A stretch of DNA of 64,000 nucleotides, taken from contig CASDUK010000002.1 in assembly GCA_949283975.1 (NCBI GenBank), forward strand, positions 161 through 64,160. Reading direction: 5' to 3'. A program made the translations under genes and the position numbers. The notes beneath the pieces are model-generated. The model had not been told where the DNA came from. It saw only the letters and a program-made list of their open reading frames with translations, and did not search any database. Shown piece by piece: positions 26 to 56,632 of this stretch. The stretch's first letter is position 1. Every line of letters starts with the position of its first letter. This DNA is from an uncultured Bacillota bacterium. GTDB taxonomy: Bacteria > Bacillota > Clostridia > Christensenellales > UBA1242.

Positions 26-91
26 CTTCTCCTAATTTTAAAGCAAAATGCAAATTATTCCGCCCTTTCCCCTTAAAATGTTCCGTTTTAT

Positions 92-1909
92 TTACGCCGG
101 CTTTGTTGTTGAATATGTCCCCGCCCCGCTGAAACTTGTAACCGGGGTTGGGTCGTTGTTCTTATACCATGTTACATAACCTGGAAGCGCAATATTTTCA
201 TCAAGCTTTGACCCCTCTTCAACAACAATTTCGGTTAGGTTTGTTAAATTGTGGTCTGTAAACAAATTGGTTGGAAGGCTTTCAACCCCCGCCCCCAGTG
301 TTAACGAAGTTAACTTGTCGCATACAAAGAAAGTACTTGAACCCAAACTTGTAATATTTCCGTTGATTGTAATTTCGGTTAAACCGCTGCATACGTCGAA
401 AACACTATTGCTAATTGTAGTTAACGAGCTTGGGAGAGACACCGAAGTTAAATTGGTACACTGTCGAAAAGCATGCTCCCCAATTTCTGTTACTCCTTCT
501 GGAATTGTTATTGAGGTTAAGCCTTTGCACTCAGCGAAAGCAAACTCGCCAATTTCTGTCACTCCTTCTGGAATTGAAACTGAAGTTAAAGTTTTGCATG
601 AATAAAAACTATAGTCGCCAAGCCTGGTCACTCCCTTTGGAATTTGATAAAAAGATGCTGTGTTTCCTATTGCATACGCATAAAGGGTTTTCCCACCGTC
701 AAGAAGAAGCGCGCGGCCGCTGTTATCAATAGTGTAATTATCGTTTCCTGCTCCTTTAAATGATTTTAAATTAATGCAATAGTAAAAAGGCATCATACCA
801 AATGAAGTTAATGTGCTGGGCAATGTTACCGAAGTTAAATATATGCAAGACATAAAAGCACTATCAGCAAGTGAAGTCACTCCCTCTGGGATTGTTATGG
901 AAGTAAGACGAGTGTAAGCAAAGGCCCCCTGAGCAATTTCGGTTACGCCTTCTGGAATTTTAATTGAGGTTAAACCGCTGCAATAAAAGAAGGCCACGCT
1001 ACCAATTTCGGTTACCCCGTCTGGAATCGTTATTGAGGTTAAACTATAGCACATATAGAAAGCAGCCTCGCCAATTGAGGTCAATGTTTTTGGAAGAGAT
1101 ACCGAGGTTAAATTGCTGCAATTTTGGAATGTATTATTGCCAATTTCACTTATCCCTTCTGGAATTGAAACTGAGGTTAAGTCTTCGCAGTATCCGAACG
1201 CATAATTGCCAATTAAGGTTAATGTGCTTGGAAGAGACACTGAGGTTAAACTGCTGCAACTTTGGAAAGCATAATCGCCAATTGAGGTCACTCCTTCTGG
1301 AATTGTAATTGAGGTTAACTTGCTGCAACTAGCGAAAGCAGAACTGCCAATTGAGAAAACTTTGTAAGATTTGTTTTCGTTTTGAACTTCAGGAAGAATT
1401 TCAGCGCTTGAAAGCTCTATTGAAGTTGTGTCCGTTACTTCTGCAAGTTCTGCATCTTCATAGATTGTGTATTTTAACTCCCCAACTGTTTGCTCTGTTG
1501 TTGTTTCGTTAAAGAGAGCAAAGTAAGTTGTTGGGCTGTCTGAAGAAAGCTTAAAGGAATATGTTGGAGAGGTTGAAACAATTTTCATTTCGTTTGGGTC
1601 TGTTGATGTTGCCCAGGCGAGGAAACTGTTAGAGCCGGACGGCGTTGCGGTTAGGGTTACCGTTTCGCCAATTGTATATTCGCCAGAACCAGTTTCTGGG
1701 CCTAAGCCGGTTGATGAACCAGAGCCGGTTGTTGAGCCCAAAGTTGAAATATTTGGCGAAACCGAAATTGTTGCCTTTGCAACTTCATAACTTAAAGTTC
1801 CCTTTAAATTTAATTTTTCGCTTGGGGCGGCAAAGGCAAAGCCAACGCAAACCGCGGCAAGAAGAGCAAAGCAAATTGCAAGGATTGAAATTTTAATTTT
1901 AAGGCTCAT
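92..1909 (-). CDS. Secreted BspA-type (TpLRR/LRR_5) leucine-rich repeat surface protein, copy 1
   Basis: 605 aa. N-terminal signal peptide, InlB-B-repeat-like domain (GeYtiGETVTLTATP...FlaW), about 14 repeats of LTSITIPEGVTxIGxxAFxxCxx. No C-terminal anchor. Confidence 0.92.
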   Translation of the reverse strand: MSLKIKISILAICFALLAAVCVGFAFAAPSEKLNLKGTLSYEVAKATISVSPNISTLGSTTGSGSSTGLGPETGSGEYTIGETVTLTATPSGSNSFLAWATSTDPNEMKIVSTSPTYSFKLSSDSPTTYFALFNETTTEQTVGELKYTIYEDAELAEVTDTTSIELSSAEILPEVQNENKSYKVFSIGSSAFASCSKLTSITIPEGVTSIGDYAFQSCSSLTSVSLPSTLTLIGNYAFGYCEDLTSVSIPEGISEIGNNTFQNCSNLTSVSLPKTLTSIGEAAFYMCYSLTSITIPDGVTEIGSVAFFYCSGLTSIKIPEGVTEIAQGAFAYTRLTSITIPEGVTSLADSAFMSCIYLTSVTLPSTLTSFGMMPFYYCINLKSFKGAGNDNYTIDNSGRALLLDGGKTLYAYAIGNTASFYQIPKGVTRLGDYSFYSCKTLTSVSIPEGVTEIGEFAFAECKGLTSITIPEGVTEIGEHAFRQCTNLTSVSLPSSLTTISNSVFDVCSGLTEITINGNITSLGSSTFFVCDKLTSLTLGAGVESLPTNLFTDHNLTNLTEIVVEEGSKLDENIALPGYVTWYKNNDPTPVTSFSGAGTYSTTKPA

Positions 1910-1939
1910 GATTTTTTCTCCATTTCTCTTATATTTTGT

Positions 1940-1948
1940 ATTTTACCA
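1940..1948 (-). promoter_or_regulatory. Possible proximal extended -10 promoter element (TGGTAAAAT)
   Basis: TGnTAAAAT about 30 bp upstream of the ATG, conserved in copy 2; no clear -35. Confidence 0.4.
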
Positions 1949-2180
1949 CTAATTATTTAAAACATATTGACGGTTGCCCGTAAACAAGCGTTTTTTTGGC
2001 AGTTTTTTTGGCTAGGCAAAGCCTGTTTTGCCCGTTTTTTTAGGTTTTCTTCCGCTTTAGCCAAAGCAAATTGCTTTCCGCTTTGGTTCAAAAACCTTAA
2101 AACCAAACTAAGAGGTTGACCTCGCTTGCGACCGCCAATGGACGTTTCCACCAAAAAACTTTTCGTGGCTTTACATACCT

Positions 2181-2212
2181 ATTGTACTGCCCCCCCCCCC
2201 CCTCATTGTCAA
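2181..2212 (-). promoter_or_regulatory. Sigma70-type promoter with G13 tract in the spacer (candidate phase-variable promoter)
   Basis: Minus strand TTGACA-ATGA-G13-CAG-TACAAT; spacer 20 bp; poly-C at 2190-2202 on +. Confidence 0.7.
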
Positions 2213-2303
2213 GTGTTTTGAGGGGTGTTTTGAAAATTTTTTTAAAATTTAGCCCTTTTTTTCTTTCTCCCCCGCTTTTTTCGGGGTTGGGGGCAGAAGG
2301 AAG

Positions 2304-2331
2304 AAAAAAAAGCGGCAAAAATTGCCGCTTT
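2304..2331 (-). terminator. Intrinsic terminator of the pgk-tpiA-ABC transporter unit
   Basis: AAAGCGGCAA/TTGCCGCTTT inverted repeat with an A-run at 2304-2311 (U-tract on -). Confidence 0.75.
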
Positions 2332-2362
2332 AAATTTAACACTTCATTTATAACAAGTTTAA

Positions 2363-4153
2363 TTAATCAACCATTTTAAGCGAGGTGTTCATGTCGACCT
2401 TTTTAATCTTGTGGAGCAAAAGCAAATCGATTAGCCCTATTAACGCGATAACAACCGCTATTGTCAATAGATAGACCCACCAGCTTACATCTGAAATTAA
2501 GCCAATATCCAAATAGCCAAACAAGAACCAAACAAGGAAACATCCAACTGGAATTCCAATTAAGATTCCCATAAGTGACATAATAAAAATTTCGCGGTAG
2601 ATATACCCTGCAACTTCTGCTTGGTGGTAGCCTAAAACTTTTAAAGTTGCAATTTCTCTTGTTCTCTCGCCAATATTCATGTTTGTTAAATTATATATAA
2701 CCAAAACGCAAAGGGCGCACGCAAAAAGGACAATTACAGACGAAATTAGCGAAACGGCGTCTGCAACAGCGCCAAGTTTTTCGCTTGTTGTTGTTGCGTT
2801 ATAAAGCGCAACGCCAGCAAAAACAATTGCCGTTGAGCCCCCAACAGAAACAAGGGTCATAATTAAATGTTTTTTATATCTAAAAATGTTTCTAAAGGTG
2901 GATTTATACTTAAATTTAGTTCTGTTCCAAATAAACGGAATTTTTTCTAGAAAAATTTTCTTTCCTGGCTTTGGCGCTTTTGGCCTTAAAAGGTCGGCTG
3001 GTTTTTCTTTTAAATAATTTCCAATAATAACTCCAGTAACCCCGCAAACTGCAAGAATTATTCCAAGAGAAACAACTCCTCCAATTAAAATGTTATAGTA
3101 GCTTACCATTTCAGGGAGGAAAAGAATTGTGTTAAAGCCTGGATAGATTATGTTTGGAATTAAAAATGTTCCAGTTGCAAGCCCAAAGCCGCAACCCAAA
3201 ATGCAACTTACCGCGGAAAATATTATATATTTAAAGGAGATTTTTCCGTTTCCATAGCCAAGAGTTTTATAGCAACCAATAATTTGCCTTTCCTCTTCAA
3301 TTAACCTTGTCATTGTTGTTAAAACAACTAAAACAACAACGGCAATAAAAAACAGCGGGAAAATTAAACTAATTTTTTGAACTTTATCCGTGTAACTTTC
3401 CGTAATCATATAACTTTTGTTCTGTTCAACTGTTAAAATTTCAAAAGTGTCAAACGAAAGGGTTTCTTCAAGCTGCTGCGCCGCAGCCAATACCATTTCT
3501 TTGTAATCATCTGAAAAATAATTAATTCCCTCTTCTTTTTCCAATTTTAGATAGACATCTTTTGTTGGAAAAGGAAGGAAATTATATGTTGAATCTATGT
3601 AAACAATTAGCTCCAGCGGATTTTGATTTATAACATCTGGCTCAAAATCCTTGCTGTAAATCAACGGACTTCCAACAACGCCAACGATTTTGAAGGTAAT
3701 TCCATATAATTCAACAGTGTCGCCCTCGGAAAATTTTTGCATGTAGTCTGTTTGCCTTTCAACAACAATTTCGTTTGCCGCCTTAGGAAGCCTTCCAGAA
3801 ACAAGTTCCAAGGTGTTAACATTGTTCTCGTTAAAATTCATGTAAACAATTCTTGAATTTAATTCTCCAATTTCCATATCAATTGAAGAAACAGCTTGAA
3901 AATCAGCAACTCCTTCAAAGGAAGAAATTTCTTTAATTTGGCTTTGGGAAAAGTTTCCCGTTGTTGATTTAACAATTAAGTCTGAAAAATTATATGCTTC
4001 AAGGTTATTGCTAACAGAAACCCTTGTTATTGGCGAAAGAGCGCCAAGCCCAGAAATTATTGAAACTCCAAGCATTACAATCAATGCGATTGCAAAAAAC
4101 CTTCCCAAATTATTTCTAAATGTTCTGTTAATTGTTTTTGGATAGGATTTCAT
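2363..4153 (-). CDS. ABC transporter permease, FtsX/MacB family
   Basis: Two FtsX-type TM blocks (MTRLIEEERQIIGCYKTLGY; MNIGERTREIATLKVLGY). Start placed at the ATG at 4153 (ORF track 4168). Confidence 0.88.
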   Translation of the reverse strand: MKSYPKTINRTFRNNLGRFFAIALIVMLGVSIISGLGALSPITRVSVSNNLEAYNFSDLIVKSTTGNFSQSQIKEISSFEGVADFQAVSSIDMEIGELNSRIVYMNFNENNVNTLELVSGRLPKAANEIVVERQTDYMQKFSEGDTVELYGITFKIVGVVGSPLIYSKDFEPDVINQNPLELIVYIDSTYNFLPFPTKDVYLKLEKEEGINYFSDDYKEMVLAAAQQLEETLSFDTFEILTVEQNKSYMITESYTDKVQKISLIFPLFFIAVVVLVVLTTMTRLIEEERQIIGCYKTLGYGNGKISFKYIIFSAVSCILGCGFGLATGTFLIPNIIYPGFNTILFLPEMVSYYNILIGGVVSLGIILAVCGVTGVIIGNYLKEKPADLLRPKAPKPGKKIFLEKIPFIWNRTKFKYKSTFRNIFRYKKHLIMTLVSVGGSTAIVFAGVALYNATTTSEKLGAVADAVSLISSVIVLFACALCVLVIYNLTNMNIGERTREIATLKVLGYHQAEVAGYIYREIFIMSLMGILIGIPVGCFLVWFLFGYLDIGLISDVSWWVYLLTIAVVIALIGLIDLLLLHKIKKVDMNTSLKMVD

Positions 4154-4157
4154 CGCG

Positions 4158-4865
4158 CTACCACTCAATCTCCTCTATGTCCTTTGGTTTTTCATTTCTT
4201 TCAATTTTTTCAACTTTTCCGTTTTTAATTTGAATAACTTTGTCTGCCATGTCTTTTAAAGCAGCGTTGTGGGTTACAATTATAATTGTTTTATGTTCTT
4301 CCTTACACATGTCGTGAAGCAACTTTAAAATGCTTTTTCCTGTTAAATAATCTAGCGCTCCGGTTGGCTCATCGCACAGCAAAATTTTTGGGTTTTTTGC
4401 AATTGCCCTTGCAATTGAAACTCTTTGCTGCTCGCCGCCAGAGAGTTGGGAGGGAAAATTGTTAATTCTATCTTTAAGCCCAACTTTTTCCAAAATTTCC
4501 GCCGGTTTAAAGGCATCTTTACACAACTCAACCGCAAGTTCAACATTTTCAAGCGCTGTTAAATTTGGCATCAAATTATAAAATTGAAAGACAAATCCAA
4601 CATCATTTCTTCTGTAATCTGTTAAACTTTTTTGATTTAATTCTCTAAGGTTTGTTCCGCTAACATATAGGTCGCCAGAGGTAATGCTGTCCATTCCGCC
4701 CATAAGATTTAAAAGCGTTGTTTTTCCCGCCCCGCTTGGGCCTAAAACAACGGCAAATTCACCTTCTTCAACGTCAAAAGAAATTCCATCAACGGCGTTA
4801 ATTTCACTTGTTCCAACCTTAAATGTTTTAACAACGTTATTTGCCTCAACAATTTTATTTTTCAT
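4158..4865 (-). CDS. ABC transporter ATP-binding protein, LolD/MacB family
   Basis: [31 protein letters not shown]. Confidence 0.93.
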
Positions 4866-53610: not shown

Positions 53611-53935
53611 AAATAAAAATTTATTATGTTGCAAAAAATTAAAAAGAAATTTTGCCGCTAACAGTTTTTCTTGTTTATTTATAAAATTTTTTATGAAAAA
53701 TTAAACATTTTCTTTGCCTCGTTAATTTGGCAAGATTGTTATTTTGGAAATTTTATTTAATTTGTTGCCGCAAAATAAAAAGAATTCCGATAAAATTTTG
53801 TTCTTTGCTCTACGCCTCTTTATTCTAACAATCTTTTGTTTTATTGAGCAAAACCTTCCTGTTATCATAAAAATTATCTATATCGCAAAGAAAAAGAGCA
53901 TCCCTGCCCTTTCCCCTTAAAATGTTCCGTTTTAT

Positions 53936-56125
53936 TTACGCCGGCTTTGTTGTTGAATATGTCCCCGCCCCGCTGAAACTTGTAACTGGGGTTGGGTCGT
54001 TGTTCTTATACCATGTTCCGCTTGGGAAAGTTGTTGAGGTTAAATCCCCAAGAACTTCAATTTCGGTTAGGTGTGTTAACCTGTCAAACAGATCGCTTGG
54101 AAGGGTTGAAACATCTTTTCCCAGCGTTAGTTTTGTTAGATTATCGCAACCAACAAAAATACCCCCATACCAATCAAGATTTGTAATATTTCCGTTGATT
54201 GTTATTTCGGTTAAACTGCTACAATTTTGAAAAGCCGCAAAGCCAATTGAGGTAACTCCTTCCGGAATTGTTATTGAGGTTAAACTATCGCAACCATAGA
54301 AAACATAATCGCCAATTTCTGTCACTCCTTCTGGGATTGAGATTGAGGTTAAACTATCGCAACCATAGAAAGCAGAATTGCCAATTTCTGTCACTCCTTC
54401 TGGGATTGTTATTTCGGTTAAACTGCTGCAATTTTGGAAAGCCCCATAGCCAATTGATGTTACTCCTTCTGGGATTTTTATTGAGGTTAAACCTCTGCAA
54501 CTAGAGAAAGCACTATCGCCAATTTCTGTTGTTCCATCTCTAATTGTTACGCTTGTTAAGGAATCTCTAGAAACTGAAAGCGCTATGGCGATGTTTTCTC
54601 CTGTTTGCCCATTTACATAGTATTGAACATCATCTACAATTTCAATTCTTACAACCGCCTCTTCTCCGCTTGAAACTACTTCTTTTGCATAATATCCAAC
54701 TTTGCCATAATCAGAAGAACCTGCCGTTATGTTTAAACTTGAATTGTTATAAACTATTGCTAATTTAGAACAATTTTGAAAAGCAGAACTGCCAATTGAG
54801 GTCAACGTGGTTGGAAGGGTTACTGAGGTTAAAATGTAGCATTGAAGAAAAGCATCCTTGCCAATTGAAGTCACTCCTTCTGGAATTGTTATTGAAGTTA
54901 AACTGGTGCAGTCTCCGAAAGCCCTTTCGCCAATTGAAGTTAAAGTGCTTGGAAGAGACACTGAGGTTAAACGGCTGCAACCAGAGAAAACATAATCGCC
55001 AATTGAGGTCACTCCTACTGGGATTGTGTATGAAGTTGCTGTGTTTGCTACCGCATATGCCAAAAGAGTTTTTCCGCCGTCTACAAGAAGCGCGCGGCTC
55101 TTGTCAATTGTGTAATAGTCGTTGCCTTCTCCATAGAAAGCCTCTAAACTGCTGCAACCATAGAAAGCATTATAGCCAATTGAGGTCACGCCTTCTGGAA
55201 TTGTTATTGAAGTTAAAGCGGTGCAATGAGCGAAAGCCCATTCGCCAATTGAGGTCACACTTTCTGGGATTGTTATTTCAATTAATTTCCCGCAAAGATT
55301 GAAAGCATAATCACCAATTGAAGTCACTCCTTCTGGGATTGTTATTGTGGTTAAACTGCCGCATTGAGCGAAAGCCCATTCACTAATTAAGGTCACTCCT
55401 TCTGGGATTATTATTGAGGTTATGCCGCAACTAAGGAAAGCATGACTGCCAATTGATGTCAATGTGCTTGGAAGAGAAACTGAGGTTAAACTGGTGCAAT
55501 AATAGAAAGCAGAATTGCCAATTTTTGTCACTCCTTCTGGAATGGTTATTGAGGTTAAACTGGTGCAGTCTCGGAAAGCAAAATCACCAATTGAGAAAAC
55601 CTTGTAAGAGTTTCCCTTGCTTTCAACAACGGAAGAAATTTCCAGCGCGCCGGAAAGATCGGTTGAAGTTGTGTCTGTTACGCTTGCAAGTTTTGCGTCG
55701 CTATAGAAGATGTAAGTTAAATCTCCAACTGTTTGGTAGGTTAAGGTTGATTTGTTAAAGAGGGCGTAATAGTCTTTTGGAGAACTCTCCAAAAACTCAA
55801 AGGAATATGTTGCGGAAGTTGAAACAATTTCCATTTCCTTTGGGTCGGTTGAGGTTGCCCAGGCGATGAACGTGCTATTAGAGCTGGACGACGGCGTTGC
55901 GGTTAGGGTTACCGTTTCTCCAATTGTGTAATCCCCAGAGCCGGTTGTTGAGCCCAAATCTGAATCGTTTGGCGAAACCATAACAACTGGCCTAGGAACG
56001 TCATAACTCAAAGTTCCCTTTAAGTTTAATTTTTCGCTTGGGGCGGCAAAGGCAAAGCCAACGCAAACCGCGGCAAGAAGAGCAAAGCAAATTGCAAGAA
56101 TTGAAATTTTAATTTTAAGGCTCAT
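53936..56125 (-). CDS. Secreted BspA-type leucine-rich repeat surface protein, copy 2
   Basis: 729 aa. First 41 and last 26 residues identical to copy 1. About 17 LRR units in three blocks separated by two non-LRR inserts. Confidence 0.92.
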   Translation of the reverse strand: MSLKIKISILAICFALLAAVCVGFAFAAPSEKLNLKGTLSYDVPRPVVMVSPNDSDLGSTTGSGDYTIGETVTLTATPSSSSNSTFIAWATSTDPKEMEIVSTSATYSFEFLESSPKDYYALFNKSTLTYQTVGDLTYIFYSDAKLASVTDTTSTDLSGALEISSVVESKGNSYKVFSIGDFAFRDCTSLTSITIPEGVTKIGNSAFYYCTSLTSVSLPSTLTSIGSHAFLSCGITSIIIPEGVTLISEWAFAQCGSLTTITIPEGVTSIGDYAFNLCGKLIEITIPESVTSIGEWAFAHCTALTSITIPEGVTSIGYNAFYGCSSLEAFYGEGNDYYTIDKSRALLVDGGKTLLAYAVANTATSYTIPVGVTSIGDYVFSGCSRLTSVSLPSTLTSIGERAFGDCTSLTSITIPEGVTSIGKDAFLQCYILTSVTLPTTLTSIGSSAFQNCSKLAIVYNNSSLNITAGSSDYGKVGYYAKEVVSSGEEAVVRIEIVDDVQYYVNGQTGENIAIALSVSRDSLTSVTIRDGTTEIGDSAFSSCRGLTSIKIPEGVTSIGYGAFQNCSSLTEITIPEGVTEIGNSAFYGCDSLTSISIPEGVTEIGDYVFYGCDSLTSITIPEGVTSIGFAAFQNCSSLTEITINGNITNLDWYGGIFVGCDNLTKLTLGKDVSTLPSDLFDRLTHLTEIEVLGDLTSTTFPSGTWYKNNDPTPVTSFSGAGTYSTTKPA

Positions 56126-56244
56126 AATTTTTTCTCCCTTTCTCTTATATTTTGTATTTTACCACTTATTATTTAAAACATATTGACGGTTGCCCGTAAA
56201 CAAGCGTTTTTTTGCTAGGCAAAGCCTGTTTTGCCCGTTTTTTT

Positions 56245-56410
56245 AGGTTTTCTCCCGCTTTAGCCGTAACAAATTGCTTTCCGCTTTGAGGTTTATAAAC
56301 CCAAAACCAAACAATTTAGGCCGCCTGCTAAAGCCAAGTTTTCTCTTCCGTTTTAGCCAAAGCAAATTGCTTTCTGCTTTAAGGTTTGAAAACCTTAAAT
56401 CAACCTAAGG
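56245..56410. repeat. Imperfect tandem duplication (about 90 bp period) in the copy 2 leader
   Basis: Unit gttttct..ccg.tttagcc..a.caaattgctttc.gcttt.aggttt..aaacc starts at about 56245 and about 56336; single unit in copy 1 (about 2042-2110). Confidence 0.8.
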
Positions 56411-56480
56411 GGTTTAGCCTCGCCAGCGACCGCCAAAGGGCGTTTCCACCCAAAAAAACTTTTCGTGGCTTTACATACCT

Positions 56481-56502
56481 ATTGTACCCCCCACCCTGTC
56501 AA
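56481..56502 (-). promoter_or_regulatory. Homolog of the G-tract promoter with the spacer collapsed to 10 bp
   Basis: Minus strand TTGACA-GGGTGGGGGG-TACAAT. Confidence 0.6.
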
Positions 56503-56632
56503 GTTTTTTGAGGCATTTTTTGAATTTTTTTTAAAATTTAGCCCTTTTTTTCCTTTCTCCCCCGCTTTTTTCGGGGTTGGGGGCAGAAGGAAGGGAATTT
56601 TTTATTATAACCGTTGTAAAAAAAGCGCTATT

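Follow-up and report, generated by a model that had tools for sequence, protein, structure and literature searches.

In a 64,000-nt stretch of contig C2 from an uncultured Clostridia bacterium of the chicken gut (C2:161-64160, hereafter the window), two genes for BspA-type leucine-rich repeat (LRR) proteins, here named A and B, are each preceded by a sigma-70-type promoter in which a poly-G tract of variable length separates the -35 and -10 hexamers. Our best reading, held with moderate confidence, is that these are contingency (phase-variable) surface genes reshuffled by homologous recombination, and A and B are members of a lineage-specific multigene family of secreted, probably surface-exposed proteins. 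An earlier note on this DNA had described the two genes as a dispersed LRR cassette with constant ends and a variable core; its observation was partly confirmed and its interpretation partly supported, and the main feature that it overlooked is the variable poly-G tract within the promoter. The host has a reduced genome, with an assembly of 893 kb in 7 contigs, 36% G+C and 98% completeness. It is labeled G000 (contigs C1, C2, etc.), and G001, G006 and G011 denote related genomes; family genes with a poly-G promoter are lettered A to G, with A and B lying in the window and C on contig C3.

Poly-G promoters upstream of the family genes

The promoter module consists, in order, of TTGACA, the poly-G tract and TACAAT, which form a near-consensus sigma-70 promoter, a leader of 200-370 nt, a ribosome-binding site (RBS), a signal peptide and an NL.G.LSY motif. 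When A, B and C were aligned, similarity began abruptly just past the terminator of the upstream gene and took in CTTGACA, the G run and GTACAAT. The distal promoter of A (2181-2212, minus strand) has TTGACA at 2207-2212 and TACAAT at 2181-2186, separated by a 20-nt spacer that consists of ATGA, a G13 tract (2190-2202) and CAG. In the distal promoter of B (56481-56502, minus strand), the same hexamers flank the interrupted tract GGGTGGGGGG, with a spacer of 10 nt. The upstream part of the module in A occupies 2213-2303 (minus strand) and contains a hairpin-like CCCC..GGGG element as well as a stretch rich in A; the A/B/C alignment places the limit of homology at 2303, and the module is bounded by unique sequence with the terminator of the upstream ABC-transporter permease gene (2309-2331, minus strand). 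The 5' module of B (56126-56593, minus strand), delimited by repeat-finder families D7, D8, D10 and D14 and by alignment, comprises the upstream element and a leader in which a ~93-nt unit occurs twice.

The host genome contains 942 TTGACA sites, nine of which have a run of G6 or longer within 6 nt, and all nine are located upstream of family genes. These nine poly-G promoters sit 90-370 nt upstream of genes that encode a related signal peptide and an NL.G.LSY-type motif. Five G/C runs of 12 or more were observed in the genome against 0.002 expected, and six of the eight runs of at least 8 stand in a poly-G promoter context. The spacer measures 20 nt in A, 10 nt in B, where the tract is interrupted by T, 17 nt in C, 15 nt in D, 11 nt in E and 17 nt in F; manual counts gave 28 nt for gene G (C2:182277), 17 nt for C1:42983 and 11 nt for C3:129769. 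Both hexamers are thus kept in all nine copies while the spacing between them runs from 10 to 28 nt, with the optimal 17 nt in three of the nine. A promoter scan called the promoter of C (TTGACA, 17 nt, TACAAT; 11/12 matches) and did not call that of A at its spacer of 20 nt. All tract lengths are those in the assembled contigs. The 20 public runs listed for this DNA all consist of DNA contigs, with no RNA run among them. In four of these runs, from four studies, no piece spans 2183-2275 with the G13 tract; a 23.7-kb contig of run X1 ends at 2276, short of the tract of A.

The genes behind these promoters encode dissimilar proteins. LRR bodies of the A/B/C type occur in only three of the nine, and the other six bodies are unrelated, which indicates that the module is common to unrelated protein bodies. 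The proteins of D to G, the four scanned, matched no Pfam or NCBIfam family above cut-off, and the remaining two, compared by their N-terminus without a family scan, resemble G and E in that region. A sister subfamily with the signal peptide MSLKAKLIS... lacks the poly-G module in the host genome and has a proximal promoter similar to the candidate described below for the leader.

The leader of A (1910-2180, minus strand) extends from the distal promoter to the start codon and contains one ~93-nt unit, an GTTTACGG..CCGT inverted repeat and a GGAG RBS (1918-1921). The ~93-nt unit is present once in A (2045-2084) and twice in B (56248-56287 and 56341-56380), C and F, and is absent from D and E. 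The short inverted repeat, which is conserved, stands just before a candidate proximal extended -10, TGGTAAAAT, located in A at 1940-1948 (minus strand). A proximal promoter like TGGTAAAAT also serves family genes without the poly-G module. Tandem Repeats Finder returned 0 rows on the leader of B, in which the ~93-nt units were seen by the repeat finder (family D7) and by alignment. Rfam gave nothing at gathering score in the window, with chance-level hits only in the leader (E >= 0.07), and the first 60 nt of the leader gave a weak consensus fold (-5.6 kcal/mol), in which one of 13 pairs is compensatory; an RNA element in the leader is not claimed. As a separate observation, the conserved leader carries a terminator-like hairpin and T-run antisense to the LRR gene (2015-2032, plus strand, and 56218-56235 at B), which could stop antisense transcripts or be a remnant.

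The exact poly-G promoter pattern was found in one of 40 other related genomes, that of G011, which belongs to the same genus and has an FtsZ 98% identical to that of the host genome. G011 has three poly-G promoters, with tracts G7, G8 and G7AAG6. The C2:182277 locus is orthologous in G011 and has the same flanks, with a spacer of 18 nt there and 28 nt here; its UvrB-like flank is 97% identical and its variable protein 72%. The ortholog of the gene at C3:139667 has a poly-G module in G011 and a plain promoter in the host genome. These differences at orthologous loci indicate that the tract length changes, and that the module comes and goes, on the time scale of speciation. A scan of the genome collection returned one record (L047), whose promoter region reads as that of G011. 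Scans of metagenome contigs with a degenerate promoter-plus-leader pattern and with the leader inverted-repeat pattern gave 0 matches each, and a looser spaced promoter pattern retrieved two unrelated sites without G tracts among the relatives. We also observed that the small secreted protein behind the G17 promoter (C2:181322-182227) evolves fast (72% vs G011, L028), as expected of an exposed antigen.

Shared ends and mosaic structure of the LRR genes

Gene A (92-1909, minus strand) encodes 605 aa with a signal peptide, an N-terminal domain of ~150 aa and a BspA-type LRR solenoid (LRR_5, E = 3.8e-107), and gene B (53936-56125, minus strand) encodes a BspA-type LRR protein of 729 aa (LRR_5, E = 2e-154) with the same signal peptide. 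The gathering score of Pfam LRR_5 (PF13306), 27.7 bits, was exceeded by A, B and C with 353.7, 506.5 and 535.2 bits, respectively. Residues 66-134 of A gave a weak Flg_new_2 match, and A and B each have a weak InlB-B-repeat-like match close to the N-terminus. Two curated families matched below their cut-offs and by the LRR part alone: the HupY/LrrG adhesin (NCBIfam NF047961) at 159-186 bits against a cut-off of 1250, and Gli349 (NCBIfam NF045861) at 107-150 bits against 1750. At the end of the signal peptides stands AFA, with AP or LP as the next two residues, and a Cys at position 21 lies outside a lipobox context.

Most of what the earlier note had said about the ends of A and B was borne out. 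The 3' repeat, 62-173 against 53906-54017, is a 112-nt direct repeat at 99% identity with 1 mismatch, seen by the repeat finder (family D5) and by BLASTN alike; in each gene it takes in the final 82 coding nt and 30 nt of flank. The proposed identity over 41 codons holds as well, since the first 123 coding nt are identical at 120 positions, with 3 synonymous changes, and the proteins are identical through residue 41. The upstream similarity, about 400-470 bp long, reaches 2303 in A and 56593 in B in blocks at 85-97% identity; the block around the start codons measures 280 nt at 92% identity, and blocks further upstream are at 85-94%. Both genes lie on the minus strand, as had been noted, homology on the 5' side does stop sharply just past the terminator of the upstream gene, and the neighbors are indeed unrelated, with an ABC transporter and glycolysis genes at A vs ftsA/ftsZ at B. 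The cores differ in sequence and in repeat number as described; the numbers themselves, however, are lower by motif count (about 12-13 LRR units in A and 14-15 in B) than the 14 and 17 that had been given.

The unit is not restricted to these two copies, as had been supposed. In whole-genome BLASTN, gene C (C3:99898-102150; LRR_5, 750 aa) proved to have the signal peptide of A and B and a full 5' arm, the third in the genome. Partial 5' arms turned up at three loci (C3:199166, C3:45618 and C4:32765), and two further genes, at C7:224-1738 and C2:145572-146480, have a 3' arm that is 88-92% identical. The identical 41-aa N-terminus is found in three genes, A, B and C, and BLASTP of the genome's open reading frames (ORFs) yielded ~15 that match A or B. 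The proposal that the arms serve exchange was not sustained, as the 5' arm consists of the promoter, leader and signal peptide and is used also by unrelated bodies, and the 3' arm combines the C-terminal tail of the family with the left half of an ancestral terminator.

The composition of the 3' arm became clear from comparison with paralogs. The 30 non-coding nt common to A and B (62-91, minus strand) correspond to the left arm of an ancestral intrinsic terminator, and in B, whose copy of this flank occupies 53906-53935 (minus strand), a degenerate arm comes next. Past the same flank sequence, an intact terminator hairpin and T-run are found in the paralogs at C7:224-1738 and C2:145572-146480; the right arm of this hairpin is degenerate in B and lost in A, so that the hairpin is truncated there, and in A a different hairpin with T8 stands ~50 nt beyond the shared flank. 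The last 27 codons and the stop codon of A, counted from the WYK motif (92-173, minus strand), have one mismatch to B and are read as a recent recombination tract. Aligned without gaps, A and B are identical at 82 of the last 84 nt and at 19 of the preceding 84 nt. The last 24 residues, NNDPTPVTSFSGAGTYSTTKPA, represent one among several tail types of a C-terminal motif that is family-wide.

The three full copies are mosaics. High-stringency BLASTN and protein alignment revealed that A and C match over 709 bp (-87 to +618, 92% identity) but have unrelated tails, that B and C share 125 bp at 94% identity directly before the WYK motif and tail, and that B and A are identical at 111 of 112 nt from WYK onward. 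In addition, the paralog pair C3:27427 and C2:118645 has a 99-nt 3' block at 100% identity. N-terminal and tail types were tallied among 32 proteins, comprising 29 relatives from other assemblies together with A, B and C. The N-terminal type PRPVV was combined with the tail TRTD in five proteins, with STTKPA in two and with TKS in one, and the type AKAT was combined with STTKPA in three and with TRTD in one. All four combinations of two N-terminal and two tail types thus occur, a pattern of recombination and not of descent alone, and the exchange at the DNA level that the earlier note had suspected is supported both by this result and by the mosaics. RecA is present in the genome. The mosaic ends point to RecA-type homologous recombination or gene conversion between paralogs, which would keep the ends alike, and recombination between paralogs would also shuffle N-terminal domains, LRR blocks and tails, although mechanism and timing are deduced from sequence comparison. 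We regard it as very probable that the part of the explanation concerning the family and its recombination holds.

Several further members or possible members of the family were observed. A 189-aa ORF in the window (62896-63465, minus strand) has a family-like N-terminus (MKIKAKLATT...), a signal peptide and a GGGVGY motif, and may be a further short family member. Another family gene (MSLKAKL...) begins ~150 nt downstream of A, where the end of contig C2 truncates it (C2:1-21, outside the window), and the two may be tandem neighbors; contig C7 likewise begins mid-gene in a family member (C7:1-223), whose 3' end is 92% identical to that of A. The MSLKAKLIS paralogs at C3:27427-30667 and C2:145572-147136 change frame at the same place, ~140 codons in, after NLTKSVM, with differing local sequence; C3:27427 also has its tail in a different frame, and the paralog at C2:118645 stops just ahead of the usual tail. 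These paralogs may be pseudogenes, assembly errors or programmed shifts. As a separate observation, the gene for a giant LRR-bearing protein of 4397 aa (C3:147105-160298) has a G10 tract within its coding sequence (C3:158031-158040; L046:11032-11041), in which a one-base slip would remove ~750 C-terminal residues including the LRR, making it a candidate translational phase switch.

Possible promoter switching, dispersal and rival explanations

Sigma-70 promoters work best at a spacing of 17 nt, and long G tracts slip. Slipped-strand mispairing would alter the length of the G tract, and tract length sets the spacing of the hexamers and through it the strength of the promoter, as is established. 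Each family gene could in this manner be switched or tuned separately, and cells would then differ in the surface proteins that they display. With spacers of 20 nt and of 10 nt interrupted by T, A and B are predicted to be weak or off from the distal promoter. Functional phase or volume variation of the family genes appears reasonably likely to us; the layout of the promoters suggests that tracts may switch in living populations and that the distal promoter may be the main driver.

Several observations weigh against phase-variable surface genes. Neither an LPXTG motif nor a lipobox was seen when the sequences of A, B and the family were read by eye, without a lipoprotein predictor. Most spacers are far from 17 nt (10, 11, 11, 15, 20 and 28), and where they are several bases off, a single-base slip would not turn on the promoter; the T that interrupts the tract of B stabilizes it. 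The genes for MutS and MutL are present, so that slippage would proceed without the boost from missing mismatch repair. Furthermore, the candidate extended -10 TGGTAAAAT precedes the start codons of A, B and C by ~35 nt, and as a second promoter it may make expression independent of the distal one. Much of this would also be expected if the poly-G tract were no working switch, with the proximal extended -10 driving the genes and the distal pair and its tract being either a decaying remnant or a fixed tuning element: only three of nine spacers measure 17 nt and the others range between 10 and 28 nt, the tract of B is interrupted, the proximal TGGTAAAAT is conserved in A, B, C and in family genes lacking the module, and mismatch repair genes are retained. 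We nevertheless judge this rather unlikely. The hexamers are intact in all nine copies and in the three of another species, with only the tract varying, and this is not the picture of a decaying remnant, since a remnant would lose the hexamers too; in addition, runs of G12 to G17 are unlikely to persist by chance in a genome of 36% G+C.

For the likeness of the ends, one alternative to recombination is that whole units were duplicated and that selection on the promoter, signal peptide and tail kept the ends alike, with no ongoing exchange of DNA. The ends are indeed functional elements, and many relatives show protein-level conservation of signal peptide and tail. Selection of this kind does not account for the conservation of synonymous and non-coding sites (120 of 123 nt, and 111 of 112 nt including the 30-nt flank), for a nearest relative that shifts along the gene from A-C to B-C and then to A-B, or for the N-terminal and tail types in all four combinations, and we consider plain paralogs improbable. 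Even less probable, in our view, is the mobile unit that the earlier note had raised, in which a non-autonomous cassette would insert units from promoter to terminator into intergenic sites. The sharp boundaries of homology and the scattering of copies among housekeeping genes would suit it, as would the absence of B between ftsZ and a 679-aa gene in G011, G001 and G006 (three of six related genomes; the stretch fetched from the other three did not include the 679-aa gene, so the locus is not comparable there) and the absence of A after the permease gene in G011. However, terminal inverted repeats of the kind expected of a transposon-like or MITE-like unit are at chance level (best local score 13 against shuffle means of 12.2-12.6, with 176 and 216 of 500 shuffles as high), no target duplication was seen, and homology begins and stops where a transcription unit does. 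Unlike in site-specific inversion or shufflon systems (vsa/Vpma type), which have a dedicated recombinase gene next to the variable genes, no recombinase gene lies beside the family genes, and the sole Phage_integrase-family gene, for a tyrosine recombinase, is located on another contig (C1:273640-274188; serine recombinases were not searched). The comparison for empty sites, proposed earlier, showed that relatives lack A and B at the corresponding loci. It gave no clean empty site and no definable junctions, since the intergenic DNA of the sister species does not align; past the ftsH-like gene beside C, synteny is not kept in the four genomes examined. Finally, the shared ends could be a repeat collapse or chimera of the assembly, given that contig C2 begins ~250 nt beyond A, inside another family gene, and C7 starts mid-gene. 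These contig ends indicate that the assembler broke at family repeats, with A and B themselves unaffected: B is located 54 kb into a contig of 230 kb and C within one of 262 kb, the copies differ at scattered sites, the 23.7-kb contig of run X1 enters the module from unique flank with no differences (2276-4400), two X1 contigs match the core of A exactly, and the same promoter recurs in another species that was assembled independently. An artefact is therefore highly improbable. We attribute the dispersal of the family to whole transcription units being duplicated and recombined, and not to transposition.

More tentatively, the 5' arm may be a portable contingency cassette, in which homologous recombination within the conserved leader and signal-peptide sequence would move a hypermutable poly-G promoter onto and off unrelated genes for secreted proteins. 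This possibility fits with the ortholog that has a poly-G module in G011 and a plain promoter here, and with the module preceding LRR genes as well as four non-LRR body types. If it is true, the set of genes under stochastic control would itself be reshuffled.

Comparison with known systems and significance

The vlp genes of Mycoplasma hyorhinis reportedly have a conserved 5' region and signal peptide in common, and the tpr genes of Treponema pallidum are said to combine conserved ends with variable centers and to undergo gene conversion from silent donor cassettes. In the family described here, by comparison, the partners all look like complete genes, and the protein fold is unrelated to that of the tpr products. 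In Neisseria meningitidis porA and T. pallidum tp0126, a poly-G tract between -35 and -10 switches genes for surface proteins, and the tp0126 promoter is optimal at a spacing of 17 nt (PMC7864442); our promoters share the G tract between the hexamers of a gene for a probable surface protein and the expected optimum of 17 nt, but have no sequence relationship to these, and differ in the ninefold module, the long conserved leader and the possible second promoter. Several tpr genes also have poly-G promoter tracts, in a set of paralogous genes for surface proteins (PMC7864442). The vlp genes are switched by a poly-A promoter tract and resemble the present family as a multigene set of variable surface proteins, each with its own homopolymer promoter and a repetitive, size-variable body, although they encode lipoproteins (PMC10502178), whereas the tract here is poly-G and no lipobox was seen. 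Candidatus Mycoplasma girerdii is likewise host-associated, and its small genome holds at least 28 BspA-like LRR genes, eight of which have length-variable simple repeats that were read as phase variation; the repeats there are mostly dinucleotides in or near the genes and were read as causing frameshifts (PMC5476646), in contrast to the homopolymer in the promoter spacer described here.

A literature search, of incomplete coverage and with supplements excluded, found nothing on poly-G tracts in the promoter spacers of BspA-like genes from Clostridia. Systems of this kind are known, and the lineage is what is new here; the present case is distinguished by a ninefold promoter module in a 0.9-Mb genome together with apparent module exchange between unrelated genes. 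Phase variation by simple repeats is textbook knowledge for pathogens such as Neisseria, Treponema, Campylobacter and mycoplasmas; to our knowledge, it has hardly been described for the uncultured Clostridia with reduced genomes that are common in animal guts.

Nine poly-G promoters of the same layout, along with reshuffled gene ends, point to strong pressure on the cell surface of this bacterium, whether it comes from host immunity, from phages or from attachment niches. These promoters provide a simple sequence marker for the candidate surface proteins of the host organism, and the lengths of their tracts in metagenomic raw reads could reveal surface switching in vivo.

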